Below, one piece after another: positions 3,376-31,998 of a stretch of 32,000 nucleotides of DNA (within the stretch, counting starts at the first letter, position 1; each line of letters starts with the position of its first letter). The notes beneath the pieces were generated by a model that made no database searches, was not told the DNA's origin, and was given only the letters and a program-made list of their open reading frames with translations. This DNA is from Dickeya dadantii NCPPB 898 (GTDB lineage: Bacteria > Pseudomonadota > Gammaproteobacteria > Enterobacterales > Enterobacteriaceae): positions 3,071,337-3,103,336 of the forward strand of contig NZ_CM001976.1 in assembly GCF_000406145.1 (NCBI RefSeq). Direction: 5' to 3'. Made by a program: the position numbers and the translations under genes.

Positions 3376-4791
3376 TTACTGTGTATCCGGCTGTTTCGCA
3401 GATGATTGTGTCATTGGGGGATACAGTCTGGAGCTTTCCCAATCGATCCGCTCAAACAAAATAATAGTAATAGCTGCCATTAATAGGTTTGTTATAGGAA
3501 ATGCCCACCACAGGCCGGAGATACCTAGCGAAGTATAGTGGGATAATCCCCATGCCAGCGGGATCTGCACCAGCCATTGAGAAATCAGCGCCAGCGTCAT
3601 GGTCGTCATGGTGCGTCCTGTGGCGCGAAAAGCACCATTTAGAGCCATCTGCAATCCAATCAACCCATAGCTTGGCGCGATGATATGAAAGAAAAGCGTC
3701 CCGTGATTAATAACCTGGGTCTGTTCGGGCGCAAATAAACCAATAATATCAGGCGCAAAAGCGAATCCTGTCAGGCCAATCATTGTCAGTGTTAAAAATG
3801 AGATCGTTGCGCTTAAACGCCCAATCGCACGCGCACGCTCAAATTTTCCCGCCCCAACATTTTGTCCAACCAGTGTTGCGGTGGCGATTGACATGCCAAT
3901 AGCCGGTACAATAACCAGCGCATTAATATTAATCACCACACCGTAGGCTGCCGTAACCGCCGTTCCCAGCTCGGTCACCAGAGACATCATGCCACTTGCA
4001 CCCAATGCATGAGCACAGAGTTCAATTGACGCAGGCATTCCCAGCCGAACGACAGATTTAACCATATCGAATCTGGGTTTCATCGCGCGGAAATAAATCT
4101 TAAGGCTGATACGGCTGAAACGTAAGGCCAAAAATCCTGCTACCATCGCAATGCCTTGATTAATGAGAGTAGCGATACCAGCACCCGTTACGCCAAATGC
4201 GGGAATAATCCCATAACCAAAGATAAATAGCGGATCCATGATGGCGTTGAGAATCAGCGTACCCAGCGTGATCAATAATGGAATACGGACTTCGCCCGCG
4301 CCCCTCATCAGGGATTGCAGCATCGCAAAGCCAAAGGTAAATACCAGACCACTGATGAGAACGCGCAAAAAGCTGAGTGCAAGAGGAAATACATCTTCCT
4401 GCGTACCGAGCGTATGCAACATCCAGGGCGTAAGAAAATATCCTACCACCGAGATAGGTATTGAAAATAGCAATGACAACATGAATACCTGGGCCGCAAT
4501 AGCGTTGGCATCGCGATGCAAGCGGGCTCCAATACACTGCGCGACCAGTGTCGTACCCGCTATGCTCAAGCCAATACCTAAAGCAAAAGCCAGAAAAATT
4601 ATAGGCTGGCTTACCGATATTGCCGCGACGGCTTTATCCCCCAAACGCCCCACCCAGAAAGCATCGGTCATGATGTATCCGGACTGTAACAGATTGGCCA
4701 AAATAACGGGCACGCCCATCTTTATCAGCGAGCGTAATATCGAACCTTGCAACAAGGTGTTTGATGTTTCACTGGAGAGTTCAGAAGACAA
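3376..4791 (-). CDS. MATE-family multidrug/metabolite efflux transporter (471 aa)
   Basis: The protein has about 12 hydrophobic segments with N- and C-halves of similar pattern and a typical MATE N-terminus (ILRSLIKMGVPVILANLLQSGYIMTDAFWVGRLG). The start is TTG at 4791, preceded by AAGGGA at about 7 nt. It is the last gene of the co-directional cluster. Confidence 0.9.
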   Translation of the reverse strand: MSSELSSETSNTLLQGSILRSLIKMGVPVILANLLQSGYIMTDAFWVGRLGDKAVAAISVSQPIIFLAFALGIGLSIAGTTLVAQCIGARLHRDANAIAAQVFMLSLLFSIPISVVGYFLTPWMLHTLGTQEDVFPLALSFLRVLISGLVFTFGFAMLQSLMRGAGEVRIPLLITLGTLILNAIMDPLFIFGYGIIPAFGVTGAGIATLINQGIAMVAGFLALRFSRISLKIYFRAMKPRFDMVKSVVRLGMPASIELCAHALGASGMMSLVTELGTAVTAAYGVVININALVIVPAIGMSIATATLVGQNVGAGKFERARAIGRLSATISFLTLTMIGLTGFAFAPDIIGLFAPEQTQVINHGTLFFHIIAPSYGLIGLQMALNGAFRATGRTMTTMTLALISQWLVQIPLAWGLSHYTSLGISGLWWAFPITNLLMAAITIILFERIDWESSRLYPPMTQSSAKQPDTQ

Positions 4792-4826
4792 GACGTAATC
4801 CCTTACTGTAAATGGTTATGGAAAGC

Positions 4827-5009: not shown

Positions 5010-5552
5010 TTAAGGCGATGCAGAGCAATCGCTCACCCGAAAAACAAGAAGCTTGCCGATTAGTTCCTGACGAGTTCTGTTATCCTGACCCAACGTACAA
5101 ATATGAATACTCATTAATGCTCTGTCCGGTTTGGCGGAAGATATATCTATTGCAGTAATTTTTGCTTTTATTCGTAATATATCGCCTGGTCGTGTAGGCC
5201 GAAGCCAGTTGATCTTCTCAACCCCAGTGCCAATAATGCCATGCGCCAGAGGTAAGCTTTTAACCAGTAGATTCATGGTAATACTTACCGTGTGCCACCC
5301 GCTTGCGGCCAGCCCTCTGAAGATGGAGTCTTTTGCCAGCCTATCGTCCATATGAAAAGGCTGCGGGTCATACTTCATCGAAAACTCGGTGATTTCATCC
5401 ACACTGACATGATATTCAGAGCTATAAAAGACCTGACCGACTTTAAGGTCATCGAAATACAGTTTCGATGGTGTTACATCCCTCACCTCGCTTCCTGTAA
5501 CGTATTCCTCAACACTACTCAAATAGTCGTTTGAATAATTTTCATCATGCAT
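5010..5552 (-). CDS. MaoC-like hot-dog fold (R)-specific enoyl-thioester hydratase/dehydratase (180 aa)
   Basis: The ATG is preceded by GGGAGG. MaoC-type features include DPQPFHMD, FRGLAASGWHT and a C-terminal hot-dog beta-sheet region. Local GC is low (26/60 in the line 5161-5220). Confidence 0.85.
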   Translation of the reverse strand: MHDENYSNDYLSSVEEYVTGSEVRDVTPSKLYFDDLKVGQVFYSSEYHVSVDEITEFSMKYDPQPFHMDDRLAKDSIFRGLAASGWHTVSITMNLLVKSLPLAHGIIGTGVEKINWLRPTRPGDILRIKAKITAIDISSAKPDRALMSIHICTLGQDNRTRQELIGKLLVFRVSDCSASP

Positions 5553-5662: not shown

Positions 5663-6388
5663 CTATGAAAAAGCCATCCAACCTGTTTTATTTTTAACTC
5701 GCCTCATACGAAATTTTGCAAAATTTTCCGCATTGTCGAAAAACAAATAAATGTTATAACGAAACACCTGTGCAAACGTTAACCCGGGTGGATACACATA
5801 ACTGTGCCCAGGATAAATGCGGGCCTTTTCGGGTAACATCGCTTTAAGACGTTCAATACTCGAAAATAAGCTTGCCGCATCCGCATAATTGGAACACAGC
5901 CCGCAGCCCTCAATGAACAGCGTATCGCCAGTAAAGACGTGCGGACCGATCCAATAACAAGTACTTCCCGACGTATGGCCCGGCGTAATGATCGGGCGAA
6001 TAAGCATCCCCGCCGCTTCCCAGGAGCGATCTTCAAACATACGCATTGCTGGAATACAGAATCCCGAAGATTCCGCCTCCTTACGTGATATCCACACCGG
6101 GCAACCATGTTTATTCGCCAAAGACTCAGCAAGATCAATATGGTCAGGATGAGCATGGGTGATCAATATTCCCACAAGCTCTGCATTAGCATGCTTCAAC
6201 GCGGTTTCCAGTGTGTCTATTTCCCATGCCGGATCAATCAGCAACGCCTGGTTCAGGCGGCGGTTAAGCACCATATAGTTGTTATTGATAAAGCGACCAC
6301 GGCGAACCTTGAGTGTCGTCACCGCGATATCGTCTGATGACATCGCGCACGCTAACGCCGACGACGTCACCTTATTTTTCAGCCACAT
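5663..6388 (-). CDS. metallo-beta-lactamase-fold hydrolase, glyoxalase-II-like (241 aa)
   Basis: It carries the zinc motif ILITHAHPDHIDL (HxHxDH), a later TPGHTSGS, and GDTLF / PGHSY elements. GGAG lies about 9 nt upstream of the ATG. Confidence 0.85.
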   Translation of the reverse strand: MWLKNKVTSSALACAMSSDDIAVTTLKVRRGRFINNNYMVLNRRLNQALLIDPAWEIDTLETALKHANAELVGILITHAHPDHIDLAESLANKHGCPVWISRKEAESSGFCIPAMRMFEDRSWEAAGMLIRPIITPGHTSGSTCYWIGPHVFTGDTLFIEGCGLCSNYADAASLFSSIERLKAMLPEKARIYPGHSYVYPPGLTFAQVFRYNIYLFFDNAENFAKFRMRRVKNKTGWMAFS

Positions 6389-6644: not shown

Positions 6645-7931
6645 TCACGCTTTAGGAATGATGACTTTCAGATTTTCAAAACCATGTAAAAAATTGGAGT
6701 AGCTACGTTCCGGCTCTTCAAGTACTTCGATTCTGGAAAAACGCTTGAGAATTTCTTCCCAGATAACCGTCAGTTGCATTTCGGCAACCCGGCTGCCGAT
6801 GCAGGCATGTACTCCAACGCCAAAGGAGAGATGCCGGCGGGCGCGTTCACGGTCGATGCTGAAGGTATCGGGATCTTCAATCGCCGAGGCATCGCGGTTA
6901 CCGGACGTGTACCACATGACGACACGGTCGCCTTCCTTGATGTTTTTGCCACGGATTTCAACATCGCGGGTGGCAACACGGCTCATAAAGTTGACCGGGG
7001 GGTGAAAGCGCAGCGTTTCCGATATCATCGGCATCACCAGCTTAGGATTTGCTTTGAGTTTGGCGAACTCTTCCGGATATTTATCAAGCAAGTAAAGGCT
7101 GCTGGAGATAGTGTTACGCGTCGTGTCGTTACCACCGATGATCAGCAGCACAATGGTGCCGCGGAACTGTTCTAACGTCATATCGCGCGTGTCGGGGTGA
7201 TGAGCCAGCATCGAGATAAGGTCATAGCTTGGCGGCCCATTACGGCGTTTTTCCCACAGCGCCTCAAAGACTTGATAGCATTTAACGGTTTCTTCCGCCT
7301 TTTGCTCCCAGCTTTTCACCAGGCCATGCCCCGGCTCGAACATCAGCAGGTCAGACCAAAATGTCAGCTTACGGCGCTCTTCAAACGGAAAGTCGAGCAG
7401 CGTCGCCAGTACTGTCGCCGTAAGCTCCTTGGATACCAAATCCACCCAGTCAAAAGGCTCGCCGATTGGCAGGCTGTCGAGAATAATTCCCGCACGTTCC
7501 CGCATTATCGGCTCCATTTGAGCCAGGCTGGAAGGCCCCACGGCCGGTGTTACCGCCTTGCGGTGTTTAGTATGCTCAGGGGGATCCATCGTGATGAAGC
7601 CAACGTTTTTGCGCCGTTCATGGCCCAGAGCCTGCAGCGCCGCTTCGAGTTTGATCTTCTCTTCAATCGATTTCAGATCGATGTTCTGCGTGGAGGTGAA
7701 ATCACGATAGTTATTGCCAACAGCGCGAATATCCTCCCACAGCGTGAGCGACCAGTAAGGCCCAAATTCGCTTTCCGGCGTGAAATGCACCGGGTCTTCG
7801 CGTCTGAGACGTTCAAACATCGGCAATTCGGCAGCATTAATGAAACGATCCCGACTTGCCGGGTTGATTTTCTCCAACGGGACCGCGTCAATATCCTCAA
7901 AAACATCCTGTAATTGTTTAGTCATTTTCAT
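6645..7931 (-). CDS. cytochrome P450, CYP153-like (428 aa)
   Basis: Motifs present: heme loop HLSFGVGVHACIGSRVAE, I-helix LLIIGGNDTTRNT, ExxR (ETLR). Long stretches resemble CYP153 alkane/fatty-acyl omega-hydroxylases as I remember them (EDPVH, GPYWS, MDPPEH, FDWV, VMWYTSGNRD, EMQLTVIWEEILKRF). No ferredoxin or ferredoxin reductase lies next to it. Confidence 0.93.
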   Translation of the reverse strand: MKMTKQLQDVFEDIDAVPLEKINPASRDRFINAAELPMFERLRREDPVHFTPESEFGPYWSLTLWEDIRAVGNNYRDFTSTQNIDLKSIEEKIKLEAALQALGHERRKNVGFITMDPPEHTKHRKAVTPAVGPSSLAQMEPIMRERAGIILDSLPIGEPFDWVDLVSKELTATVLATLLDFPFEERRKLTFWSDLLMFEPGHGLVKSWEQKAEETVKCYQVFEALWEKRRNGPPSYDLISMLAHHPDTRDMTLEQFRGTIVLLIIGGNDTTRNTISSSLYLLDKYPEEFAKLKANPKLVMPMISETLRFHPPVNFMSRVATRDVEIRGKNIKEGDRVVMWYTSGNRDASAIEDPDTFSIDRERARRHLSFGVGVHACIGSRVAEMQLTVIWEEILKRFSRIEVLEEPERSYSNFLHGFENLKVIIPKA

Positions 7932-8059: not shown

Positions 8060-11000
8060 TTACTGGGCTGCGCCCACATGCACAAACTGAAGCCACCATC
8101 GCGCCAGCTCGGTGACATGCGGGGCTTTCAGCACGGTAAAGTGCTGCGCCGGTCCCGCGATGGTTTCCAGCTCTTCAACCCAGCGGGCCCATCCCGCCGC
8201 ATCTTCACCTCGACGATGACGATCCTCGTCGGCATCCCTCCACGGATCGCGCACCTGTATCAGGTTTACCTGGCCGCGGTAGCGTGCCGCCGGCAGATAG
8301 TGCGTTTGTCGCGCGGCATAAAAGGTTTGCCACGAGCCTTGCAGCAGCCGCGAAGACGAATTGACCGGAATTTTCCCCGCGCGATGCAGGTGCTGGTGCA
8401 CGGCAGCCAACACCTGTTCAAGGTCGTGGCTGCCGTAAAGGGATTCATCAATCTCCAGCGTCGTCTCTAAATTGAACCCGATGCTTTCGACATACTCGCG
8501 CAGGCACGCAGCCAGGCTCGGCGTTACGGCGGCATCCATACTGCCGAGAGGCGCTTCGGAATCGATCAGCGTCAACGACGCCACGCGGCCCCCCTGGGCC
8601 GTTAATCGGCGCGCCATGTCGAACGCAACCTGCCCGCCGAAAGAGTGACCAAGCAGATGAATCGGCGTCTTTTCACTGATACCCGCCAGACGAATAGCCG
8701 CCAGGTTACGTGCAGCCGCCGCTTCAACCGACAGCTCAGGGACGTCAACGCCATCAATCCCTTTAGGCAGCAAGCCATAAACCGGCTGCCCGCCGGGCAA
8801 TGCCTGTACGAACGGCATGAAATCCGTAACGCCCGCCCCGGCACCGGGCACGCAAAACAGCGGCGTGCCATTGGCCGCGCCTTTTTGCAAGGTGATTAGC
8901 GGATTGAAATCAGCCGTCGCCGCGGCAACTGAGCGCGCCGCTGGGCGTTGCTTCGCGCCAGCCTCACCGGGCGCCGGATGACAGAGCGCATCAAGCTGAT
9001 CGATCGGCGCATCCGGGGTGGAAACCATCGCTTCAAGCGTGGCGAGATAGCCGACGGCCATACGCTCGGCGGTTTCACGGCGAAACAGATCGACGGCATA
9101 TTCCAGAATGCCATCCATACCCAGCGGCTCACCGTCCTCGCTGTATTTTTCGTACAGCATGAAATAGAGATCCCACTTGGCGTTACCGCTGTGGGCGGGG
9201 TAGACCTGCGCCTTCAGGCCAGGAATATCAAAGGTTTCCGATGGCGCGTTTTGCAGAATCATCATGGTCTGGAACAGCGGATAATGCGACGGCGAGCGCA
9301 CCGGCAATAATTCGCCGACCAGCTTCAGGTAAGGAATATCCTGATGACCATACGAGCTTAACGCCTGTGTGCGTACCCGTTCGAGCACCTCATTAACACG
9401 GGGATTCCCGGAGGTATCGACACGCATCACCCATTGCGTCAGGAAACATCCCACCAGCTCATTCAGCGCGTCGTCGCTACGCCCTGCGGAAACCGCGCCA
9501 AGCGGGATATCTTCGCCCGCGCCCAGTTGGGTGTAATAGATGCCCAGCGCCGCCTGCAATACCATCGACAACGTCATATTGCGATCGCGCGCAAGGGCGC
9601 TCAAACGCCGGTGCAAACGAGCATCGATCTGCAAAGGCAACATCTCGCCGCGATAGCTGGGTTTTGCCGGGCGCGGGTAATCCTCCGGCAGCGCGAGCGT
9701 CGCGGGTAAGCCCGCCAGCGTTGTCTTCCAGTACGCCAACTGTTCTGCAAACAGGCTGTTCGGATCATTCGGATCGCCGAGTAGCTCACGGTGCCACACC
9801 GCGTAGTCGGCATATTGCACCGGCAACGGAGCGAACCGCGGCGCGTGGCCGGCAAGACGCGCCTGATAGGCACGCGTGAGATCCCGTGTCAGCGGTGCCA
9901 GCGAAAACGCATCGCAGGCAATATGGTGGAATAGCATCACCAGAATGTGGGTTTGTGGCCCGACCCGGAGTATCGAAGGACGGAACGGCAGATCAACCGA
10001 CAGATCGAACACCGAGGTAATTGCGGTAAATACCGCCTGATGCACCTGCTCCGCGCTCACTTCACTGTACGGGATGTCGAAATGGACATCGGCGAATGGC
10101 GCGACCACCTGCACCGGTTGCCCCTCCACCACCCCAAAACGGGTGCGCAGCGTTTCATGACGCTCCACCAGATCGTACAGCGCCGCCGTTAACGCCGCCT
10201 GATCCAGCTCGCCCTCAAGCGAGACGACAATCGGCGTATTGAGCGATGAATTATCACCACGGGTATTCTGCCCAACCCACATCAACTGCTGGCCGTAAGA
10301 TACCGGCAGGGGATCGGGGCGCGGCTCGACCTTACGTAGCGGCTGACGGACGTTGGTATGCTCATCAAGCTGTTTCGCCAGACTTGCCACCGTAGGGTTT
10401 TCAAACAGCAGCCGCACCGGCAGTTCAATACCCAAGCGGCTGCGAATACGGGCGATTAATCCGGTAGCCAGAATCGAGTGTCCGCCCATCGCAAAAAAGT
10501 CATCGTCAATGCCGATTTGCGGATGCTGAAGTAATTCGGCATACAGCTCGCACAGCGCCGCCTCCCGCGCGTTACGCGGCGCCCGATAGGCGGTGGCATC
10601 GCTGAATTCCACCGCCGGCAGCGCCTTGCGGTCCACTTTTCCGTTAGCGGTCAGCGGGAATTGCGCCAGCGCCACGATACGCGCCGGCACCATATAGTCA
10701 GGCAAACGTTCACTCAGATAATCCTGCAACGCCGCCTCAGAGGCGTGCAGCCCAGCGCTAACCACGTAGGCGACCAGACGCTTGCCGCCGCCGTTATCCA
10801 CCGCCAGCACCAACGCGTTATCGACGTGCGGATGCTCGGCCAGACGCGCCTCTATCTCGCCCAGCTCAATACGAAAACCACGCAGCTTGACCTGTTGATC
10901 GTTACGCCCCACAAAAACAAGGTTGCCATCGTCCTGATAGCGCACCAGATCGCCGGTGCGATACAGGCGGGTGCGCGGCTCAGCCGAAAACGGATTGGCA

Positions 11001-13779
11001 ACGAAACGTTCGGCGGTCAGCTCGGCACGATTCAGATACCCCAGCGCGACGCCGTCCCCGCCGATATACAGCTCGCCAATGGCGCCTAATGGCGCGGGAT
11101 GCTGATGCTTATCCAGCACGTAAAGCTGGGTATTGCCGATGGGGCGCCCGATAGGAATGCTGGCCGCATTGGCCGCAACGTCATGGATCGGGTAGGTAGT
11201 GGCAAAAGTGGTGGTTTCAGTCGGGCCGTAGCCATTAACCAGCTTCGCCGATGGCGTCGCGCGCAGCACCTGGGCAATGATGTTCGGATCGAGCGCATCG
11301 CCGCCGATGAACAGAGACGTGAACTGCGCAATCACCGGGGCCAGTTCGCTATACAGCTGGTTGAACAAGCCCACGGTCAGCCACATCTGGTTCACGCGAT
11401 GCTGCTGAAGCGTACGCACCAGCCGTGCCGGCGTGAGCAAGGTATCCTGATCAATCACCACGCAGGCGCCGCCATTGAGCAACGGCGCCCATATCTCCAG
11501 CGTACTCGCATCAAAGGCCGTGTTGGCGGCAAGCGCCATGCGATCGCCCGGCGCAAACACGCCGACACCGCTATTAATCACCAGACGATTGATAGCGTAA
11601 TGCGGCACCAATACGCCTTTCGGTATACCGGTGGAACCGGAGGTATAGATGATATAAGCCGGCGCGGCGGCGGCAACCTGCACGTCGACGGCGTCGGCGC
11701 TCGCCTGCGTCACCTCAGCGCTATCGACGTCAATCACCGGCAGATTGATGTCTGCCGCCAGCGCGTGATGGCCGTCGCTGATCAGGAAGCGAGCGGAGCA
11801 ATCCTCGATAACCCAGCTTAACCGCTCTTGCGGCGCCAGTGGATCCAGCGGCACGTAGGTCGCGCCCGCCTTGAGTATGGCAAGCGTCGCCGCCAGCAAT
11901 GCGCTGCCACGCGGCAGCAATAGCGCCACGAAATCCCCCGGCTGTACCCCGCGGGCTACCAGCACCTGCGCCAGTTGGTTGGCGCGCTGATTCAGACGGT
12001 CATAACTCATCCGCGCTTCGCCGTCGATGACCGCAATCGCTTCTGGCGTGCGGGCCGCCTGTTGCTCGAACAACCGGTGAACAGGCTCATTCGCGGGATA
12101 AGCGGCTGCCGTCGCGTTCCAGTCAACCAGCAGTCGCGTGCGTTCGCCAGCGGGCAGAATTTCCAGCGCATGCATCGGCCTGACGGGGTCGCCGTCCAGC
12201 GCATCGGCCAGGCTTTTCATGGTCTGCTGGAGATAGCCGATAATCCGTTGTGCAGACAACGGCGCTGCCGCGAGCACGTTCAGGCGCAACGTCTCACCGA
12301 AGTCATCCACCGACACGGTCAGCGGGTAATCGGTGCGCTCTTCGAAGCCGTGCCATTCCACGTCATCACGTTCACCGGACACATCAACGCGTTCGTCTTC
12401 CGCCTGCTGGTTGTGGCGGTAGTTGAACAGCACATTGAACAAGGCCGTCGGCGGCGCAATACCGCTGCAACGCTGAGCCAAACTGAGAGCAGCGTGTTCA
12501 TGATCCAGTAATGCCGCCAGACGCTTGTGCGTCAAACGGACACTCTCTTCCACGCCGACATTCCCCAGGTCCAGGCGGATCGGCAGCGTATTAATGAACG
12601 GCCCCATGATCTGATCGGCGCCCTCGCCGGCCTGCAATCGGCCCAGCAGGATGGTGCCGAACACCACCGTGTCGCTGTCGCTGGCGCGTGCCATCACCTG
12701 CCCCCACACCAGGTGACAGAGGCTCCCCATGCTGACGCCAAGACGGCGTGCATGAGCACGTAAACGCGCGACGATAGTCGGCTCTACATTGTGGCGCAGC
12801 TCAACAACGCTGGCGTTGTCCACCGCCCCATTAGCCATGCCAAACGCGAGCGTCGGCGCATCGATGTCTCCCAGCATCTGGCGGAAGAATTGCTCGTGCT
12901 GTGCATCGGACGCCCCTGCACGTATCCTGGCGATCAGGCGACGGAACGGTTGCGGCGCGGGCAATAGCTGACCACGCCCCATGATAAAGGCCGTAATATC
13001 GCGGATCATGATCTGCAACGAGGCGATATCATCGACCAGGTGATGCAGCAGCATCAGCATTTCCCAGCGCCCGCTTTGCCGGTCCTGCGCGACATACAGG
13101 CTCAGCAGCGGCGCCTGAGTCAGGTCAATGCGGTAATGCGATGGATGATAGCGTTCGACCAATTGCGCCATGACAGGCCCATTGGCCGGGTCCAGCTCCA
13201 CTTCCGTGACCTGGACGCGGGCGTGACGCAGCACTACCTGTGCCGAGCGCGACAGCCCGCGCGAGAAAAACGCCGTGCGCAGAATGTCATGCCGGTTAAT
13301 AGTGTGCTGAACCGCCGCCACGTATTGCGTCATCACCTCACGGTTAGCCAGTGAGATCCTGGCGAACTGTAGGTAAGGGTCCCCCTTGTCGCTCAACTGG
13401 TGCAGGAAGAGGATCCCTTCCTGCAACGGCGTCAATGCGTAGATATCCTGCACATTCGCTACGCCGCCCGGTACGCTGGCGACAATATGCGCAATATCAG
13501 CCTGAGTGAGATCAATCAGCGGCAGCATATCTGGCGTCAGCCGGGTAGTCTCCGGAGCGATCCGATTCGCCGGCACGCCTGAACCGCTATTCCCGCCTGG
13601 CGAGGATAACTCTCGCCCCTGGCGCAGCGCGTCGACGAGCGCCGGTTTGTGCTCCCGCAACGCCGCCTTGATATCAGGGGTCAACGACCCCTTCGCTGCC
13701 TTGATGACCAGAGATTCGCCATCCAGCGATAAGGCGATATTGGCTTTCCCCAGTCTCTGCCACAGGTCATCGAAATCGA

Positions 13780-13783: not shown

Positions 13784-17271
<3,488 letters not shown>

Positions 17272-24314: not shown

Positions 24315-26201
24315 TTATGCTCCCTCTGTGACAACTTGCCTGGAATGGTTTTTTAAAACATTCAGTAAGTTGGATACGCTTTCGGCGTTCCTGCCGAATT
24401 GATTGATGATCGCGCCGTGCTGAATACGCGCGGCAAAACCGTATTTGATGAAGGTTGACAGAGTGCCGGTTGGGCTGAGATCGACAAAAAACGTCTGGTT
24501 TTTCTCAGCCAACGCCTGCATTACGCCGTAGAAATCGACAGGCTCGCGCAAGACTCGCCAGAAATACTCGCTGTCCCATTGTTCAACCGCAGTACCTAAC
24601 ATGGCGGAGTACACCGGCATTACGGGGGCGTTTTTCGGCAAGGTATCGACCAAGGCTCGGAAATCGTGCTCGATAGCCGCTATCCCGGACGAGTGGAAGG
24701 GTTGCTCAACCGGCAGCAGCATCGAGATAATATTCTGCTGCGTCAGGCGCTGTTTGAGAGCCGACAGGCTCGCCATAGCACCGCTGACCACAAAATTATT
24801 CTGGAAGTTAATACTGGCTAACTCGGCGCCCTGATAAAGCGCGGCATTGGCATGGAAGTGCGCCACCGGCGCCAGCACGCTCATCATCCCGCCGCCGGCG
24901 GTTTTGTTACTCAGCAAGTGCGCCTGAGACACCACCAGTTTCATGGCGTCATCCAGCGTCAATACACCGGCCACGACAGCCGCGATGCACTCGCCCAGGC
25001 TGTATCCCAGCACGGCGTCAGGTTCGATCCCTTCTGCTTTGAGCATACCGGTCAGGCTGACGCCAATGCTGAGCAACGCCACATTGGACTGCGCCACATC
25101 AGAGAACGGCAGGTGGTGGCGGGCGTCGTCATACAGCGCCTCCAGAAGACCGTGGCCGGTGTGTTGACGACACAGGGCGTCACACCTGTCCATCTGGCTG
25201 CGAAAGGTACTATTACGACGATAAAGCTCACGCCCCATGCCGTAATACTGTGACCCCTGCCCCCCGAACATAAACACCACACGAGGGGTGGCGGATGGTG
25301 CCGCTGGCGCTCTGGCAACGTTTTTTACCGTTGGCTTACCCGGCAACGCCATCGGCTGTGCTTTTATTTTCTCAAACAGGCTGGTCAGTACCTGCCCGGG
25401 TCCGATTTCGTGCTGTTTAACTTCGCCGGACGCCAGCAGCCGCGACAGACTTTCGTACCAACGAACGGGATGACTTATCTGGCGCGTTAACAAGTCAAGA
25501 TAATCGGATTCTGGATAATCGAGCGCTGTGTAGTTGGAAATAACCCGCGCATTGAGCGGATTGAAAGTAAAGCGTTGCGCAAATTGTGCAAACTGCGCTT
25601 CGATATCTCGCATATAGCGAGAGTGAAAAGCCGCACTCACGTTTAGCCTGACGTAGCGTGCGCCGGCATCCGTAAACAGCGTTTCGCAGGCAACGATGTC
25701 GTCATGAAGACCCGAAATGACGATTTGCTGGGCACTGTTGATGTTGGCGATATCAATGCCGCTAAACGGCGACGCAGCGAGAAGCTCCGCGACCCGGTTC
25801 AGCTCGATGCCCACGATGGCGGCCATCGCGCCGCGCGGCGCTTTCGACATCAACATGCCGCGCTCTCTGACCAGCGCGACGCCGGTTGCAAAATCAAACG
25901 CCCCCGCGGCAAACAGCGCGGCAAACTCCCCCAGACTATGACCCGCGTAGCAATCCGGCGCATCCAATCCGTTTTGTCGACTGGCGAGAACCCCGAGCGC
26001 TGAGACAACAAACAAAGCCGGCTGGGTGAACATCGTCTCACCCAGCACACCCTGAGGATCGTTGAGGCATAGCTCGCGAATTGAGAAACCGAGCACCTCA
26101 TCGGCCTCGCTGACGAGCCTGGGGAAACGCTCGAACAGCGCATTCCCCATCCCTTTGTGCTGCGATCCCTGACCAGGAAATACCCAAATTGAAGAAGACA
26201 T
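24315..26201 (-). CDS. tandem trans-acting acyltransferase AT1-AT2 (628 aa from the ATG at 26201)
   Basis: There are two FabD-like halves. I prefer the ATG at 26201 (AGGAG 5 nt upstream; MSSSIWVFPGQGSQ) over the GTG at 26234. The stop lies 3 nt before the NRPS-1 ATG. Confidence 0.9.
   Translation of the reverse strand: MSSSIWVFPGQGSQHKGMGNALFERFPRLVSEADEVLGFSIRELCLNDPQGVLGETMFTQPALFVVSALGVLASRQNGLDAPDCYAGHSLGEFAALFAAGAFDFATGVALVRERGMLMSKAPRGAMAAIVGIELNRVAELLAASPFSGIDIANINSAQQIVISGLHDDIVACETLFTDAGARYVRLNVSAAFHSRYMRDIEAQFAQFAQRFTFNPLNARVISNYTALDYPESDYLDLLTRQISHPVRWYESLSRLLASGEVKQHEIGPGQVLTSLFEKIKAQPMALPGKPTVKNVARAPAAPSATPRVVFMFGGQGSQYYGMGRELYRRNSTFRSQMDRCDALCRQHTGHGLLEALYDDARHHLPFSDVAQSNVALLSIGVSLTGMLKAEGIEPDAVLGYSLGECIAAVVAGVLTLDDAMKLVVSQAHLLSNKTAGGGMMSVLAPVAHFHANAALYQGAELASINFQNNFVVSGAMASLSALKQRLTQQNIISMLLPVEQPFHSSGIAAIEHDFRALVDTLPKNAPVMPVYSAMLGTAVEQWDSEYFWRVLREPVDFYGVMQALAEKNQTFFVDLSPTGTLSTFIKYGFAARIQHGAIINQFGRNAESVSNLLNVLKNHSRQVVTEGA
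24360..25283 (-). other. AT2: AT-like domain lacking the malonyl-binding Arg (Gln instead)
   Basis: Motifs: VVFMFGGQGSQ, the GYSLGE nucleophile, QPFHS. The position 25 residues after the Ser (FabD R117) is Gln in LVVSQAHLL. Confidence 0.75.
25359..26189 (-). other. AT1: FabD-like malonyl-CoA:ACP transacylase domain
   Basis: Motifs: IWVFPGQGSQ, GHSLGE, Arg at Ser+25 (LVRERG), SAAFHS. Confidence 0.8.
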
Positions 26202-26272
26202 AAATCTCCTATTACTGTTCCCTTGGACTGTCACTTAACGTTGCTTGTTTATCCCAACAGCGACTCGTTAAT

Positions 26273-26542
26273 TCAGGACTTGATTGCTTCCGCCGGTAGA
26301 TGGGCTTCAATCGTGCCGATCAAATCCCCGAGCGTGTAAATCCCGCGCTTGTCACCGTCGTTTACCTTGATGTGGAGCCGCTTCTCAATCTCGTACCAGG
26401 ACTCAAGCATCTCGATCGAATCCACACCCAGTTCACCGCCGATAAATGAATCCAGGTCCACGACATCAGGGGTAAATCCGGTGTTTTTGATGCCGTTAAT
26501 AATGTCGAGAACAACGGAGAGAATGTCTTTCTGAGCGTCCAT
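26273..26542 (-). CDS. free-standing acyl carrier protein (89 aa)
   Basis: It carries the phosphopantetheine-attachment motif GGELGVDSIEMLE and has an acidic helical composition. It lies 24 nt downstream of the oxoamine synthase. Confidence 0.9.
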   Translation of the reverse strand: MDAQKDILSVVLDIINGIKNTGFTPDVVDLDSFIGGELGVDSIEMLESWYEIEKRLHIKVNDGDKRGIYTLGDLIGTIEAHLPAEAIKS

Positions 26543-26566: not shown

Positions 26567-27811
26567 TTAGAGCGCGTCAAACTCGCGCGCAACGTCAGTA
26601 ATAATGTCAACGGCTTGATCGATCTCTTCCCGGGTATGGGAAGACATCACGGAGATACGCAGACGTTCTTTATCAGGAGGGACCATCGGGTATTCCATGA
26701 TATTGGCGAACAGGCCGCGTTCAAAAAGACGGCGGTTTATGTTGCCCACCACGGAGATTTTCCCGAAGAAGACGGGAATGATCCCCGACTCGCCGCGAAG
26801 AATGTTGAAGCCTTTGGATTCCAGTTGGTCCTGCATGTAGCGCACGTTGTCATGCAGCAGCGCAATGCGTTCCGGCTCGCGTTCCATCACGTCCAACGCC
26901 GCGGAAATAGCCGCAATGGTCGGCTGCGCTAAACCCGAGGTAAACAGGTAAGGATAAGAGAAGTTTCGCAGCATAAAGATATGCTCGCGGCTGCCGGAGA
27001 TGAACGCGCCCTGCGCGCCGAGCGATTTGCTGCAGGTGGACATACGCAAATCAACCTGACCCAGCAGGTCTAAATGCTCAAGCGTTCCCTTGCCGGTTTG
27101 CCCTAAGGTGCCTAAGCCGTGAGCGTCATCGAGAATGGTGATGATGTCGTGCTCCCGGCAGATATCGATGTAACGCTTGAGATCGATGATCGAGCCGTCC
27201 GTAGAACGCACGCCTTCAACCGTGGAAAATATTTGCGTATGAGGTTTCAAACGCGCCCGAATTTTAGGCAACATCTGTTCAAACTCATCCAGCCGCTCGG
27301 GATCGAAGGTAAAGAACGGCACGTTGGTCATTTTGACCGCGTTGATCACGCTGGCATGGCTGTTCTGGTCATAGATGATGATATCGTTGCGATTCATCAA
27401 TCCATTCACCCAACACAGGTTCGCCATATAACCACTCGGCAGCAGCACCGCGTCTTCATGGCCGGCTAACGCCGCCAGACGCGTCTCAAGATCCCGATGT
27501 TGCCTGGTGTAACCGGAAAATGCCGGCGACCCGCCGGTACCAATACCGTATTTTTCTACCGCTTCGACTACCTTATTTTTCACATAAGGATGGTTAGCCA
27601 GACCGAGATAGCTGTTTGAACCAAACACCAATACATTTCTGAAGTCGTCGCTATGCAGGTCTTTGTACTGCATGCGCGCATCAACCGGCCCCACGCCCTG
27701 GCGTCCGAACATGAAGCCTTTTTCCAGCTCTTTCAAATAGGTGCCATAGCGTAATTTCACGCGTTCCTTGAAAGGCTTACGTTCAAGTTCGATCAGATCA
27801 TGAAAATCCAT
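26567..27811 (-). CDS. PLP-dependent alpha-oxoamine synthase (BioF / KBL / serine palmitoyltransferase family, 414 aa)
   Basis: Motifs present: FGSNSYLGL, DQNSHASVI, ILDDAHGLG, and the PLP-lysine motif STCSKSLGAQGAF. Confidence 0.92.
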   Translation of the reverse strand: MDFHDLIELERKPFKERVKLRYGTYLKELEKGFMFGRQGVGPVDARMQYKDLHSDDFRNVLVFGSNSYLGLANHPYVKNKVVEAVEKYGIGTGGSPAFSGYTRQHRDLETRLAALAGHEDAVLLPSGYMANLCWVNGLMNRNDIIIYDQNSHASVINAVKMTNVPFFTFDPERLDEFEQMLPKIRARLKPHTQIFSTVEGVRSTDGSIIDLKRYIDICREHDIITILDDAHGLGTLGQTGKGTLEHLDLLGQVDLRMSTCSKSLGAQGAFISGSREHIFMLRNFSYPYLFTSGLAQPTIAAISAALDVMEREPERIALLHDNVRYMQDQLESKGFNILRGESGIIPVFFGKISVVGNINRRLFERGLFANIMEYPMVPPDKERLRISVMSSHTREEIDQAVDIITDVAREFDAL

Positions 27812-27862: not shown

Positions 27863-28852
27863 CTAAGGCGCAATAAAACCGTTGGCCCGATACCAGGAAA
27901 CGCACTCCTCCACCATCTGGCTTAAAGAGGAAGGCTTATAGCCCAGCTCACGCTCTGCCTTGGCGCTGCTAAAGTAATAAACCCCTCCGAAGACACGCAG
28001 ACGATAGGCATCCAGCACCGGTTCGCCGCGCACCAACCAGGGCAACTTTTCCTGAAGCAGGGTTTTCAGATAGAAAGACGGATAATGGGTCTTGGGCCGT
28101 TCCGCCTTGCACGGCACGATTGATTCAATGGTGTTGATAAGCTCGCGATAGCGGACATTGGCGCCCGCAATCAGGTAGCGCTCGCCTGAGTGTCCTTTGG
28201 TTAAGGCGCTGACGTGCGCGTCACCGACATCGCCCGCGCCGCAAAAACTGGCGCCGCCCGGCGGCAGGAACGGCAGCTGGTTATAGTTCACCGCCAACAC
28301 CATGCGCCCCCACTGCATCGAATAGTCGTAGGCACCCAGCACTTCCGTCGGGTTCAGAATGACGGCGGACAAGCCGCGATCGCAGGCGCGGTACACCAGT
28401 TCCTCAGCGAGCAATTTGCTTTTGGCATAGGGGTTTTTCGCACGAAACCCCGCCAGCACGGTCTTTTCGGTCGCCTCGGCGGCGGGGTCGTTATGCGCCC
28501 CTATCGTCGAGCTGGTGCTGGTATACACCAGACGCGACACCCCGCACGCCAGCGCCGCCTCAATCACCGAGCGCGTCCCCTCAACATTGACCGCTTCCAG
28601 CAGCGGCCAGTCACGGGCGTTGCTGCTGGTATTGCCCGCGGTATGAATCACCCCGTCGTGCCCGGCCATCGCCGCTTGCAGGCGCTGGCTATCATGCAAT
28701 TCGCCGCGCACCAGGGTGACGTCGAACGATTCCAGAAAGCTCACGTTGGATGACGCTCGCACATACGCCGTAACCTGATGTCTGGCGGCGACCAAGGCTT
28801 TTATAACGTTAAGCCCAACAAATCCGTTTGCTCCGGTGATCAGTATTTTCAT
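27863..28852 (-). CDS. extended short-chain dehydrogenase/reductase, NAD(P)-dependent (epimerase / DFR-like fold, 329 aa)
   Basis: It has the Rossmann motif ILITGANGFVG and the catalytic YAKSK (YxxxK). An ATGA start/stop overlap links it to the PKS. Confidence 0.9.
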   Translation of the reverse strand: MKILITGANGFVGLNVIKALVAARHQVTAYVRASSNVSFLESFDVTLVRGELHDSQRLQAAMAGHDGVIHTAGNTSSNARDWPLLEAVNVEGTRSVIEAALACGVSRLVYTSTSSTIGAHNDPAAEATEKTVLAGFRAKNPYAKSKLLAEELVYRACDRGLSAVILNPTEVLGAYDYSMQWGRMVLAVNYNQLPFLPPGGASFCGAGDVGDAHVSALTKGHSGERYLIAGANVRYRELINTIESIVPCKAERPKTHYPSFYLKTLLQEKLPWLVRGEPVLDAYRLRVFGGVYYFSSAKAERELGYKPSSLSQMVEECVSWYRANGFIAP

Positions 28853-31800
28853 GGTGTTTGATCTTGCTGATTAAGTTTTTCAAGCGTTTTCAGGAAGGCC
28901 TTGCGCCCTTCCCCTTTGCTGCGCATAGGCAGCGCCGCCGGATTTTTATCCGGATGGTTGGCGACCCCTTCAAGCAGAATCACGAACTGCTCAAGCAGTT
29001 GATCCAGCTGCGCTATCTGGGTATCCATCCCCCGGCAGTCAAGGCGTAAAAGCACACTGTGCGCCTCAACGCTGACCACCAGCGCCACGTGCAGCCCAGG
29101 CTGAACTGCAAAGAGAGCAGAAACGGCCTGGTTCAAACCGGCCTCGTCGCCGTCAGTCAGCAAAGCAACCGCGCTATCAAACAGCGGCGCATCGCCAACC
29201 CAGCGCTCAATCCGCTCAAGCGTGGCCCCGGTATGGTCGAAACATTTTTCAAGCTGTGTTTCAACGTCTTTGAGCCAAAGCGCGGTCTTGTGACGCCCAA
29301 CCACCTGAACGCGCACGGGTATCATCTGAGGATGTTCATCATTAACCTGCCGAACCAGACCGAACTGGGAATGCCTGGCCCGCGCATGGCGATTGGTGAG
29401 AAGCGCCCAGCCAGCGGCCATCAGCGTCTCAACGGAGATCGCCTGACGCTGGGTACAGATTTGCAGGGCCGCCACCGTGTCCCGATCGATTCGCCGCTCC
29501 ACGGACAGCGTTTGCGGCGCAGACGCTTCGGCATCCTGAACCTCTGCGCCGCCAAGCAGCGCCGAAGCCATCAACGCGCCGGCCTCGTCTTGGGCGTGCG
29601 GTTCTTGGGCATGCAGTTGCTCAACCCAGAACGCCTGCAATTGCTCATCGTCTAGCGCTTCCACGTTGCGTTCATTCTGCAGGCCGGCAAACCATGCCTG
29701 CGGTACGGTAGGGGCTCCATCAGGAACCGGCAGCGCGGCGACTTCGTTGTGGCGCGTGTGCGGCGGCGGCGCGTCAAGGCGCAGCGCGGCGTAAAGATCG
29801 CAAGGTTCTTTCGCAAAGGGGTAGCCGGGGAAAGCCACGCGACGACGTAATGCCTCGTGGTGTAACAGGCCCCAGTCAATGTCGCAGCCATGCGTCCACA
29901 GTGTGGCGACTTTGGCGAGCTGCTGCGTTTGCACCAATACATGAATAAAGTGCTTACCCGCCTCGCCGGCGATCAACTGCGGGACATCTTTGGTTTCACG
30001 CACGTTGCCGTTATAAATATCCAGCTTGCTATGCTCAGAGGCCGGGCGAGCAATAAAGCATTCCAGTTTCGTCAGCAGATCATCCATGCTCGTCGCCACG
30101 ATGGCCAACCGATGATCAAGCGTGACACGCCCAATCTGGCTGGTGTAGGCCAGATCAGCGAGATGAAGCGCGCTTCCCTGCTGCGTAACAAAGTCACGCA
30201 TCTCGACGGCGTAAGCCGCCAGACGCTCCGCCCGGTGTGCCGACAGCACCACTATTTGCGGCCGGTTCTCGGCGTTATCCCTGACGACAGGTGTGTGATC
30301 ACGACTGCGCATGAGCGCCTCTTCAGGGGACTCAACCACCACAAATGCGGTAGAACCGCCCATGCCATAGGCGTTAATCCCCGCCAAACGCGTGCCTCTG
30401 GCATTGGTGCGCCATTCCTGCGCCTCGCGCGGGAACAGGAACACAGACGTCTCGTGTTCGAACGACGTATTGACGCGATCAAGGTTGACACAGGGCGACA
30501 GACGACCGTGCTGCATGCTCAACAGCACCTTAATCAATGAACAAACGCCCGATGCCGCTTCCATATGCCCAAGGTTGGCCTTGGTTCCCAACGCGCAAAA
30601 ATGTTGCGCGTGAGTGTGGCGACGCAGCGCGTTGGACAGCGCCTTCAGTTCAATCGGATCGCCCAACTCGGTCGCCGCACCGTGGCTTTCGATATAAGTC
30701 AGCTCGTTAACGTCGATACGCGCCTCGTCCAGCGCCCGAACGGCGGTTTCCTCCATCACGGCCAGATTCGGCAAATATTGCCCTGCCCCCGTGCCCGCAT
30801 GGCCGATGCTTGAACCGCGCAGCACGCCATAAATATGGTCGCCATCCGCCAGTGCGGCGCTCAGGCGCTTCAGTACCACCATGCCGCTGCCTTCGCTTGG
30901 AATCAGGCCATTGGCGCGCTCATCGAAGGTATGTTCCTTGCCGTCCGAAGAGAGCACGTTCATCTCCTGGAGCAGCATATATTTACTGGGGTGGAGGCTA
31001 AGGTTTATGCCGCCGGCGAGCGCCATATCACACTCACCACCGAGAATGGCCTTACGTGCGATGTGCACGCTCGTCAGCGATGAGGCACAGGTGGTGGCAA
31101 CGCTGAAACTCGGGCCGCGCAGATTCATCAGGAACGAAATGCGATTCGCCAGCTCACTGACGACAGAACCGGCCCCCGGATATCGACCCGTGCGGGCATA
31201 AAGTTCGGCCATGACCCAGGTGAAATCTTCATTCATCGCGCCGACATACACGCCCACTTGCTGAGACGTGAGCGCTGACGGGGTGTAACCGGCGTTCTCC
31301 AGGGCATGCCAGGCGGAACGCAGCAAAACACGCACCTGAGGATCGAGACGACTGGCTTCATCACTGCTCATGCGGAACATCTCAGGATCAAAGACATTCA
31401 CGTTGCTGAGGAAACCGCCGCGATTCACGTAACGCGGATTGCCGTTATCGTCCGGCGTGATAGCCCAACGCGCATTCGGGATGGTGGTCAGGTTCTCTTT
31501 GCCCGCCTGAATATCCGCCCAGAAATCCGCCAGATTCTCGGCGCCGGGGAACTCGCCCGCCACACCGATAATCGCCACGGCATCACTGGCGGCATTCACA
31601 CTGGCTGATAACGATGAGCGGGCAGCATGCAACCCCAAGGTATTCGTGGGCGCGTTAGGCATAGCCCGTTTGGCATAAGGCACGGCAGGCGCGTCGGCGT
31701 GATGGCTGTTCACCGTCTCTGCGGTAAGATGCGGCGGCGTCTCTGCCGGCACCTGCCGGCTCTCCTGCGTTGCGCCATAACGTTCGCACAGATACCCGGC

Positions 31801-31998
31801 CAGTTTGGCCGTGGTATTAAACTCAAACGGCGCCGTTTTCGGCAGCCCGTCATACTCTTTCTCAAGCACGGCGCGCAATTCCATCAGCATGATGGAATCC
31901 ATACCTAACTGCTCAAAGGTGGCATCCACGGCGATATCGCCGGCGGGAAGCTTGATGATGGCCGAAATACGCTCCCTCAGCGCGTTCTCGCTCTGCAT
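28849..31998 (-). CDS. trans-AT-type PKS: ACP-KS-flanking linker-orphan C-lobe (at least 1049 aa; the 5' end may be cut by the window edge)
   Basis: The ORF stays open to within 2 nt of the window end, so the ATG at 31998 may be internal. Motifs present: LGMDSIML (ACP); TTCASSL, ESHGAATELGDPIE, GTKANLGHMEAASG (KS Cys-His-His). No cis AT, KR, DH, ER or downstream ACP is present. Confidence 0.9.
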   Translation of the reverse strand: MQSENALRERISAIIKLPAGDIAVDATFEQLGMDSIMLMELRAVLEKEYDGLPKTAPFEFNTTAKLAGYLCERYGATQESRQVPAETPPHLTAETVNSHHADAPAVPYAKRAMPNAPTNTLGLHAARSSLSASVNAASDAVAIIGVAGEFPGAENLADFWADIQAGKENLTTIPNARWAITPDDNGNPRYVNRGGFLSNVNVFDPEMFRMSSDEASRLDPQVRVLLRSAWHALENAGYTPSALTSQQVGVYVGAMNEDFTWVMAELYARTGRYPGAGSVVSELANRISFLMNLRGPSFSVATTCASSLTSVHIARKAILGGECDMALAGGINLSLHPSKYMLLQEMNVLSSDGKEHTFDERANGLIPSEGSGMVVLKRLSAALADGDHIYGVLRGSSIGHAGTGAGQYLPNLAVMEETAVRALDEARIDVNELTYIESHGAATELGDPIELKALSNALRRHTHAQHFCALGTKANLGHMEAASGVCSLIKVLLSMQHGRLSPCVNLDRVNTSFEHETSVFLFPREAQEWRTNARGTRLAGINAYGMGGSTAFVVVESPEEALMRSRDHTPVVRDNAENRPQIVVLSAHRAERLAAYAVEMRDFVTQQGSALHLADLAYTSQIGRVTLDHRLAIVATSMDDLLTKLECFIARPASEHSKLDIYNGNVRETKDVPQLIAGEAGKHFIHVLVQTQQLAKVATLWTHGCDIDWGLLHHEALRRRVAFPGYPFAKEPCDLYAALRLDAPPPHTRHNEVAALPVPDGAPTVPQAWFAGLQNERNVEALDDEQLQAFWVEQLHAQEPHAQDEAGALMASALLGGAEVQDAEASAPQTLSVERRIDRDTVAALQICTQRQAISVETLMAAGWALLTNRHARARHSQFGLVRQVNDEHPQMIPVRVQVVGRHKTALWLKDVETQLEKCFDHTGATLERIERWVGDAPLFDSAVALLTDGDEAGLNQAVSALFAVQPGLHVALVVSVEAHSVLLRLDCRGMDTQIAQLDQLLEQFVILLEGVANHPDKNPAALPMRSKGEGRKAFLKTLEKLNQQDQTP
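28939..29646 (-). other. PKS C-terminal orphan C-lobe (half condensation domain, no HHxxxD)
   Basis: aa ~785-1020 start at QAFWVEQL (the YWxxxL position) and continue with LMAAGWALLTNRH, MIPVRVQV and PLFDSAVALL. No N-lobe precedes it, only a Pro-rich linker. Confidence 0.65.
29794..30267 (-). other. PKS post-KS flanking / AT-docking linker
   Basis: aa ~578-735: QIVVLSAHRAERL, LADLAYTSQIGR, LWTHGCDIDWGLL, RRVAFPGYPFAKE. This is typical of AT-less KS modules. Confidence 0.7.
30331..31584 (-). other. PKS domain: ketosynthase
   Basis: aa ~139-556 with C304, H439 and H478 present. The active-site context is ATTCASSL rather than the usual DTACSSSL. Confidence 0.9.
31765..31998 (-). other. PKS domain: N-terminal ACP
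   Basis: aa 1-78: DATFEQLGMDSIMLMELRAVL. Confidence 0.85.

Follow-up and report, generated by a model that had tools for sequence, protein, structure and literature searches.

A probable Dickeya dadantii-type allele of the solanimycin operon, with candidate routes to its amino-polyene starter unit and its repeated serine addition

Identity and extent of the operon

In a 32,000-nucleotide stretch of Dickeya dadantii NCPPB 898 DNA (contig NZ_CM001976.1; hereafter the window), we very probably recovered the solanimycin (sol) operon, a hybrid of a trans-acyltransferase (trans-AT) polyketide synthase (PKS) and nonribosomal peptide synthetases (NRPSs), as a D. dadantii-type allele that comprises solB-solL together with 3.15 kb from the 3' end of solA. 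The cluster is already known and published, so that we report the re-discovery of an established pathway, whose chemistry is solved only in part. Twelve co-directional open reading frames (ORFs) ran uninterrupted on the minus strand from 31998 to 3376, and all 12 frames were intact (coordinates of sol features below are all on this strand). ATGA overlaps joined solA to solB and solG to solH, and the remaining intergenic gaps were 3-256 nt. An earlier note made from the sequence had described these twelve same-strand genes with their overlaps and short gaps, all of which are present, and had guessed that they might be a Dickeya sol cluster. The guess was borne out by four curated protein models, by DNA identity to two Dickeya loci and by the flanking DNA.

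The sol operon of Dickeya solani MK10 spans 40.3 kb and 12 genes (Matilla et al., mBio 2022, PMC9765074), and about 28.6 kb of a cluster of ~40.3 kb lay inside the window. In MK10 the 12 genes form one operon, and antifungal activity requires solA, B, C, D, F, G, H and I (PMC9765074). The protein sizes reported for that strain are 5358 aa for SolA, 329 for SolB, 415 for SolC, 89 for SolD, 628 for SolE, 2300 for SolF, 1163 for SolG, 1908 for SolH, 428 for SolI, 241 for SolJ, 180 for SolK and 447 for SolL (PMC9765074). The window had the same 12 genes with the same order, strand and domain content, in the commonest, MK10-type organisation, and its proteins matched Table 1 of that paper within a few residues (SolF 2306 aa, SolH 1907 aa). 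It differed from MK10 in that its allele was nearest to D. dadantii (98.6% nt) and not to D. solani.

Four proteins exceeded the cut-offs of NCBIfam models built for this system. SolG scored 2618.2 bits against NF041803 (cut-off 2200) and aligned over 1-1163 of 1163, and SolF and SolH stayed under that cut-off, as paralogues should. The scores of SolI with NF041802 (P450_SolI), SolJ with NF041804 and SolL with NF041801 (MATE_SolL) were 935.3, 467.3 and 933.9 bits, against cut-offs of 850, 350 and 780, respectively. In the database, the window SolG fell nearest to 75 Dickeya proteins named 'solanimycin NRPS SolG', which form one 90% cluster; it was 99.1% identical to entries of D. dadantii and 97.5% identical to D. 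solani SolG. Comparison loci from both species were then retrieved via their SolG proteins. The window DNA was 98.57% identical to the D. dadantii locus L014 (GCA_009903315.1) over 23,493 nt and 92.99% identical to D. solani over 23,542 nt, both within the range of 65.4-100% published among sol clusters (PMC9765074). When all window proteins were compared by tblastn, solC-solL were collinear with D. solani loci L017 and L018 at 86-98% amino acid identity (SolD 97.8%, SolF 94.3%, SolH 92.6%, SolK 88%, SolJ 86%). For solA and solB, size and domains agreed with Table 1 of PMC9765074, and both genes were collinear in a more distant sol-like locus, L020. The link to Dickeya came from the protein search and its cluster members and from the D. 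dadantii and D. solani loci; a genome scan with SolG peptide patterns matched Rouxiella, Pantoea and Erwinia, not Dickeya.

Several points count against extending the published biology to this allele. The first 4309 codons of solA (5' 12.9 kb) and the promoter lie outside the window. An exact-match look-up of the window SolG in a protein collection gave no match, so this allele is not on record and the source strain itself is unstudied. Moreover, when Matilla et al. assayed a set of Dickeya strains, no more than about half showed solanimycin-type activity (PMC9765074).

Domain searches with Pfam and NCBIfam upheld the earlier domain-level reading, which comprised a carrier protein, a short-chain dehydrogenase/reductase (SDR), an oxoamine synthase, NRPS modules, a terminal condensation-thioesterase pair, and oxidative, hydrolytic and export genes. 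The view that this combination was unrecognised did not survive. The earlier note had itself stated that high-identity synteny with a cluster of fully characterised product would remove the novelty, and such synteny was found with a published, genetically dissected cluster in which all 12 genes have been knocked out and four proteins have NCBI family models; the novelty is therefore gone, though the product is only partly solved. The multimodular proteins, given in that note as SolA, G, H and I, are in fact SolA, SolF, SolG and SolH (PMC9765074), because the two AT domains belong to one gene, solE.

The published product provides the frame for what follows. Solanimycin A and B, with m/z 963.48 and 979.47, consist of an N-terminal 2-amino-3-hydroxy-hexadecahexaenoyl group ('Ths'), glycine (A) or alpha-hydroxyglycine (B), five dehydroalanines (Dha) and a valine-containing tail (PMC10204066). 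Murphy et al. (ACS Chem Biol 2023, PMC10204066) derived these structures from tandem mass spectrometry (MS/MS), nuclear magnetic resonance and feeding experiments with labelled amino acids (Ser, Gly and Val) and labelled acetate. The earlier note was also right that the structure is not fully solved, as the published work gives none for the C-terminal C15H29NO5 unit (PMC10204066).

Polyketide part and amino-polyene starter unit

SolA, with malonyl transfer by the first AT domain of SolE (AT1), would build a C14 hexaenoyl thioester, which has been shown in D. solani via a shunt aldehyde. The window holds the last 1049 codons of solA (28849..31998), encoding a thiolation (carrier, T) domain (PP-binding, 6-70), a ketosynthase (KS) domain (ketoacyl-synt, 139-506), a RhiE-like KS linker (584-650) and an extra C-terminal region of ~300 aa. 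The triad of this terminal KS was intact (Cys303/His439/His478). As the solA reading frame leaves the window at 31998 and the 5358-aa SolA of MK10 has four KS domains (PMC9765074), the single KS module of the earlier note was an artefact of truncation at the window edge. Complete SolA is organised as KS-DH-KR-T-KS-DH-T-T-KS-DH-KR-T-KS, and the window retains the last T-KS and the C-terminal region. No carrier domain followed the terminal KS within SolA, which makes the free-standing acyl carrier protein (ACP) SolD (89 aa; 26273..26542; NCBIfam ACP models 1.7e-8) its obvious candidate partner.

In the trans-AT test, the SolA fragment gave no Acyl_transf_1 match and a separate AT protein, SolE (24315..26234), was present. 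Two stretches of SolE matched Pfam Acyl_transf_1, and residues 16-292 scored 376.6 bits with the FabD model (cut-off 260.9). AT1 carried GHSLGE, the malonate-binding Arg in VRERG, and AFHS, and is predicted to be of the malonyl type. AT2 had GYSLGE and VVSQA, in which Gln replaces the malonate-binding Arg; this domain resembles an acyl hydrolase, in agreement with the published view of the second SolE AT domain (PMC9765074). Thus, of the two trans ATs proposed earlier, the two domains stood, whereas their being separate proteins did not, since one ORF encodes both and the second is hydrolase-like. The GTG start of SolE gives 639 aa, and an ATG at codon 12 (alternative to the start at 26234) gives 628 aa, as in MK10.

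Both sol papers label SolC an aminotransferase, and in the 2023 model it transaminates a 2-keto group made by a cytochrome P450 (PMC9765074, PMC10204066). Judged by its sequence, SolC (26567..27811), a pyridoxal phosphate (PLP) enzyme of the class I/II fold according to Pfam, appears instead to be a true alpha-oxoamine synthase; this inference is new here, and a literature search combining solanimycin with 'oxoamine' found no paper. In NCBIfam, SolC matched BioF (4e-86), KBL (2e-85), serine palmitoyltransferase (SPT; 2e-84) and ALAS (2e-60), and its matches to the BioF, KBL, SPT, ALAS and CqsA-type families spanned E-values from 1e-52 to 1e-86. It scored below each equivalog cut-off, and hence is none of those individual enzymes. 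The top 50 matches of a PDB search were all oxoamine synthases (2e-63 downward), and among the family and structure matches there was no true transaminase. The motifs GSNSYLG (64), SHAS (151), DDAHG (228), CSKS (260, with the PLP lysine) and RLRIS (383) complete the catalytic set of alpha-oxoamine synthases, i.e. xSNxYLG, the stacking His, Asp-x-x-His, the PLP Lys and the carboxylate-binding Arg. Family models, structure matches and motifs therefore all sustain the oxoamine synthase call of the earlier note.

The neighbouring SolB (27863..28852) is an extended SDR of the NAD-dependent epimerase/dehydratase family (Pfam Epimerase 2.2e-35; NCBIfam HpnA 1.4e-69; OleD 2-alkyl-3-oxoalkanoate reductase 2.7e-37), and is probably a 3-keto reductase. 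Deletion of solB builds up an aminomethyl ketone, R-CO-CH2-NH2 (PMC10204066). This is formally the product of an oxoamine synthase acting on a C14 thioester, and so it supports a Claisen role for SolC. SolC, SolB and probably the carrier SolD would then turn the C14 thioester into the amino-hydroxy acid. In this step SolC would Claisen-condense the acyl thioester with an amino-acid donor whose carboxylate is retained, e.g. aminomalonate, as in the sphingofungin pair SphA/SphF, and SolB would subsequently reduce the 3-keto group; the published transamination would be superfluous. We favour such a Claisen-type role for SolC as slightly the likelier one, and regard the published transamination as a lesser but substantial possibility.

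Sphingofungin biosynthesis in Aspergillus fumigatus provides the closest parallel. There, SphB is the PKS, SphA the oxoamine synthase (using aminomalonate), SphF the 3-ketoreductase and SphH a P450 (PMC10936153). In both systems a PKS devoid of a thioesterase (TE) would be off-loaded by an enzyme of the oxoamine-synthase family, after which a 3-ketoreductase would give a 2-amino-3-hydroxy acid head; both clusters contain a P450, and the corresponding fungal enzyme was annotated 'aminotransferase' too. Unlike in the fungal system, SolC is far nearer to bacterial BioF/KBL/SPT (E 1e-63) than to SphA (8e-23), and the sol amino acid goes on as an NRPS starter unit.

Weighing against this route are findings mostly from D. 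solani. Labelled glycine leaves the N-terminal group unlabelled (PMC10204066), which excludes glycine as the donor. A donor such as aminomalonate has to be assumed, and no gene for making aminomalonate is recognisable. The solF deletion accumulates the C14 aldehyde (hexaenal) and not a free amino acid (PMC10204066). In addition, the oxoamine-synthase reading gives no defined task to the essential P450 SolI, which the published model does employ. Two other uses of SolC were considered and rejected. Use of glycine (KBL/ALAS-like) or of serine (SPT-like, with oxidation) conflicts with the labelling of Gly and Dha, and not of the N-terminal group, by 13C-glycine. Action on valine for the C-terminal unit would strip the alpha-deuteron, whereas d8-valine keeps all eight deuterons.

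The amino-hydroxy acid would next have to enter SolF (17391..24311), an NRPS with a half condensation (C) domain, an adenylation (A) domain (A*), a T domain, a second C domain, a Gly-specific A domain with an inserted monooxygenase and a final T domain. Stachelhaus codes were read by motif anchors, and the code of the first A domain (DAGALAGIMK) matched no known code. This domain retains the amino- and carboxylate-binding residues Asp235 and Lys517, and its small pocket residues make a roomy hydrophobic pocket. The A*-T pair of SolF thus has the character of a loading module that accepts a bulky alpha-amino acid in free form, and, with only a dead half-C upstream, it would load the polyenyl amino-hydroxy acid.

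The two C-like pieces on either side of the SolA-SolF junction were each limited to the C-terminal lobe of the fold (from about Pfam position 191), and neither the SolA C-terminus nor the SolF N-terminus had the full two-lobed fold with HHxxxDG. The SolF piece (23592..24311) scored 41.6 bits with Pfam Condensation, with profile positions from 191, and hhalign placed it on columns 264-395 of the cluster's C domains (probability 93%, E 3.5e-7). The SolA piece (28942..29646), which lacks an HHxxxDG motif, gave 21 bits (E 1.6e-4, under the cut-off) over profile positions 192-440 and a weak hhalign match to the cluster's own C domains (E 0.006, probability 6.5%). Searched against PDB sequences, the C-terminal region of SolA gave no match. 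Its homologue search found one protein only, and the resulting AlphaFold model was therefore shallow and of low confidence (predicted local distance difference test score 53); the top 50 PDB fold matches of this model were all C, cyclization (Cy), epimerization (E) or X domains (E 2e-7 to 4e-4). Taken together, this weak but convergent evidence suggests that the SolA C-terminus resembles the C-terminal lobe of an NRPS condensation fold and is catalytically dead. A split C domain formed by the SolA C-terminus and the SolF N-terminus was rejected, as both map to the same lobe.

These observations bear directly on the route of Murphy et al. (2023), which we consider a serious, if not the favoured, explanation. 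That route starts with SolA module 2, which lengthens the C14 polyene into a C16 beta-keto thioester; SolI then oxidises C-2 to a ketone, SolC transaminates and SolB reduces the 3-keto group, while the chain stays enzyme-bound and passes to SolF. Acetate enters the N-terminal group and labelled glycine and serine do not, and cyclosporin and oxaleimide are cited as precedents (PMC10204066). The C14 aldehyde of the solF deletion is what a stalled line would be expected to give, and SolI is essential, with a pigmented solI deletion (PMC9765074). Yet the features of SolC are throughout those of an alpha-oxoamine synthase, its matches include no true aminotransferase, and no intact C domain is available for transfer from SolA to the first SolF T domain, both flanking C-like pieces being without the His motif. 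SolF-A* also keeps the residues that bind a free alpha-amino acid. The full alternative, in which SolC as an oxoamine synthase builds the starter unit with SolB and SolD, SolF A*-T loads it, and SolG in addition is reused in trans in the manner of rhabdopeptide NRPSs (described below), is a tentative proposal that we consider less likely than not.

Glycine oxidation, reuse of SolG and chain release

The second A domain of SolF had the code DILQLGLVWK (Gly), and the A domains of SolG and SolH had the codes DVWHVSLIDK (Ser) and DALWFGGTFK (Val); the motif-anchored reading thus reproduced the hand-read series of the earlier note (unknown, Gly, Ser, Val). The C-A(Gly)-T part of SolF would add glycine, and its inserted flavin mononucleotide (FMN)-dependent monooxygenase would hydroxylate the alpha-carbon in part of the molecules, as indicated by mass spectrometry in D. 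solani and by domain prediction. This luciferase-like insert (17844..18824; Pfam Bac_luciferase, residues 1831-2140) scored 426.8 bits with TIGR04020 of the MupA/Atu3671 family (cut-off 244), and sits between core motifs A8 and A9/A10 of the Gly A domain, with A10 at residue 2201. A monooxygenase embedded in a Gly A domain, with hydroxylation of the glycine alpha-carbon, is also known from MtaG of myxothiazol and MelG of melithiazol. In those enzymes the insertion lies between A4 and A5 and the chain is cleaved to a terminal amide (PMC10204066), whereas the sol insertion follows A8 and precedes A9/A10, and the hydroxyglycine stays in the product.

SolG (13780..17271) is a one-module NRPS with a docking domain, C, A(Ser), T and a short tail (NF041803). 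Five consecutive Dha residues mean that this single Ser module must act five times (PMC10204066), and solG is present in single copy, as checked by PCR and protein sizing (PMC10204066). SolG (C-A(Ser)-T) would accordingly add serine five times, most likely in trans from one SolG molecule to another until SolH captures the chain. A possible structural basis for this was found at the protein termini. The N-termini of SolG and SolH matched Pfam TubC_N at 33.0 and 42.0 bits (cut-off 26), the SolG match being a TubC-type beta-hairpin docking domain at 17122..17259; PDB sequence matches to the AerJ and EpoB docking domains were weak, and the SolG and SolH N-termini were 53% identical to each other. 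The tails of SolF (17394-17423, ending RTIELAETRL) and SolG (13783..13812, ending RTIELDEMRL) directly follow a carrier domain, and their last 30 residues were 70% identical (ELAETRL vs ELDEMRL). Both tails and both docking domains were conserved in Dickeya, Rouxiella, Pantoea, Erwinia and a Serratia metagenome-assembled genome. With a tail close to that of SolF and a docking domain similar to that of SolH, SolG could dock on another SolG molecule as well as on SolH.

In rhabdopeptide (RXP) NRPSs, one-module subunits are reused in trans, the tail end of a subunit pairs with a strand of the docking domain, and the affinities set the product length (PMC6195595). The five-fold use of SolG may share this principle, and the predicted docking would offer a concrete explanation of the transfer between protomers put forward by Murphy et al. 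(PMC10204066). Their claim that SolG iteration is unique would then become doubtful. Like the Kj12ABC enzymes of Xenorhabdus stockiae (Hacker et al., Nat Commun 2018, PMC6195595), the sol system has repeated use of C-A-T subunits, predicted TubC-like docking, similar N-terminal docking domains on successive subunits and a condensation domain in termination. The systems differ in that the count is fixed at five in solanimycin but varies in length across RXP product libraries; in that the docking domains share 53% identity between SolG and SolH but >70% in Kj12; and in that the sol residues are dehydrated and made within a PKS hybrid, where docking is a prediction. Two points tell against trans-iteration: SolG is mainly monomeric in vitro (PMC10204066), and the docking argument is drawn from sequence similarity.

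The C domains offer a candidate site for the dehydration of serine. SolF-C, SolG-C and SolH-C1 were mutually 49-56% identical. All three passed the dual epimerization/condensation (E/C) motif test, with the N-terminal motifs HHLFDEAGD, HHMLASKGD and LHQLSDKGD and the second His motifs HHLVDDI, HHLIDDI and HHLVDDI, respectively; SolH-C2 was of a different type (HHIACDA). The N-terminal motif and the altered second His motif are shared with the dual E/C domains of Pseudomonas lipopeptide synthetases, e.g. SyrE, and with nocardicin NocB. Abstraction of the alpha-proton, carried out by dual E/C domains and by the NocB C domain, is the chemistry that dehydration of Ser requires. The sol motif is HHLxDDI and not HHxxxDG, unlike in the SyrE-type and NocB domains, and sol has the MaoC-type protein SolK as an alternative candidate dehydratase. 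We infer that these dual E/C-type C domains (HHxxDDx) and/or SolK may dehydrate each Ser to Dha. SolK (5010..5552) is a hot-dog dehydratase/hydratase (Pfam MaoC_dehydratas 5e-12) that matched the MaoC-like dehydratase of PDB 3exz at 4.6e-37.

SolH (8060..13783) is an NRPS with a docking domain, C, A(Val), T, C and TE domains. It would add valine, which has been shown by d8-Val labelling, and its second C domain and TE (motif GHSFG) would release the chain or pass it on. In the window, solH was one intact frame of 1907 codons, unlike in L014, where it lay at 13480-19211 in pieces of 737 and 1217 codons and the gene calls were limited to a 263-aa TE gene; the latter is likely an assembly or frameshift problem of the draft.

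Downstream of solH lie the genes for the cytochrome P450 SolI (6645..7931, NF041802), the glyoxalase-II-like hydrolase SolJ of the metallo-beta-lactamase fold (5663..6388, NF041804), SolK, and the multidrug and toxic compound extrusion (MATE) exporter SolL (3376..4791, NF041801), the last gene of the operon, which would export the product. GC content at third codon positions was 0.44-0.50 for solJ, solK and solL, 0.60 for solI and 0.63-0.72 for solA-solH, a composition break inside the operon (3376-7931 vs 8060-31998). Together with the low conservation of solJ and solK (86% and 88%), this break fits a separately acquired, variable tailoring and export module. SolL has 471 aa when read from a TTG start at 4791, and 447 aa in the MK10 annotation; the alignment with the NCBIfam SolL profile begins at residue 1, in support of the 471-aa form.

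Two further readings concern the product as a whole. It seems unlikely that the window allele makes a structurally different congener or is silent. The suspicion derives from SolJ and SolK, where divergence from D. solani is largest (86% and 88% identity), and from the six additional residues of SolF; variants in the sol family do lose the monooxygenase domain, the SolH TE or solJ, or gain a glycosyltransferase, and, as mentioned, activity was confined to about half of the Dickeya strains assayed (PMC9765074). Against it stand 12 intact frames in the commonest MK10-type organisation, with all the catalytic motifs that were checked in place. Far less probable is the collinear reading (Matilla 2022 Fig. 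5, and the earlier note), in which each module acts once to give a lipid- or polyketide-linked X-(oxidised Gly)-Ser-Val tetrapeptide: it follows from the domain order and the A codes (unknown, Gly, Ser, Val) read off the sequence, but this 2022 in-silico model has been overturned by MS/MS and isotope labelling (PMC10204066) and is already refuted for D. solani, whose 93%-identical cluster gives five 69.02-Da (Dha) steps by MS/MS, incorporates labelled Ser and Gly into every Dha step and has a solG proven to be single-copy by PCR and protein sizing.

Flanking DNA, related loci and significance

The flank of the window, with its tRNA genes and phage lysis genes, agreed with the published sol context. 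Immediately 3' of solL, tRNA-Leu(UAA) and tRNA-Cys(GCA) lie 9 nt apart (2891..3059, minus strand; ARAGORN; Rfam tRNA 60.6 and 54.1 bits), followed by a terminator-like GC-rich hairpin with a T-run (2830-2847, minus strand). This tRNA pair is the leuZ/cysT site, an integration hot spot of sol clusters, and a phage-remnant context has also been described (PMC9765074). The third tRNA of the published trio, glyW, was not in the window. On the plus strand, a compact lysis cassette (316..1717) comprised a holin (316-627), an endolysin (within 467-1105), Rz (1102-1542) and an embedded or overlapping Rz1-like ORF (1379-1717), with PHROGs E-values of 1.6e-41 for the holin, 4e-60 for the endolysin and 6e-36 and 1e-22 for the Rz-like spanins. 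There were no other phage genes in view, and the cassette probably represents the remnant prophage noted by Matilla et al. beside sol clusters. Between this cassette and the tRNA genes, an ORF of 65 aa (2150-2347, minus strand) matched phrog_5901, a phage family without assigned function (E 1e-9).

More distant collinear copies of sol were found in Rouxiella, Candidatus Pantoea multigeneris and Erwinia tasmaniensis. They showed variants described in the paper of Matilla et al., namely absence of solJ, a SolH without TE and an inverted solL. In the distant sol-like locus L020 (GCA_977068475.1, CDRUYE010000007.1), SolC was 84%, SolB 73% and the SolA tail 62% identical to the window proteins. There, the SolA C-terminal region is called as a gene of its own (397 aa), and the SolF homologue has 1952 aa in the gene table, with the monooxygenase domain not among its listed Pfam families. 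Gene calls also varied within D. solani: solI is split in L018 (124 + 298 aa), and in L019 solF is split (113 + 2183 aa) and SolH has a reduced length of 1823 aa. The differences point to errors of sequencing or annotation, or to frameshifts of individual strains, in the published genomes.

As a discovery the locus carries little weight, since the cluster, its knock-outs, its distribution and most of the product structure are published and its proteins have been named by NCBI. Its remaining value is that of a well-conserved second allele of a pathway with questions on the five-fold addition, the dehydration, the starter unit and the C15 unit. If the proposals made here are true, two published mechanistic assignments for solanimycin would need revising, namely SolC as a transaminase and the 'unique' iteration of SolG. 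The sequence comparisons make the activity of SolC and the docking of the SolF and SolG tails directly accessible to experiment.

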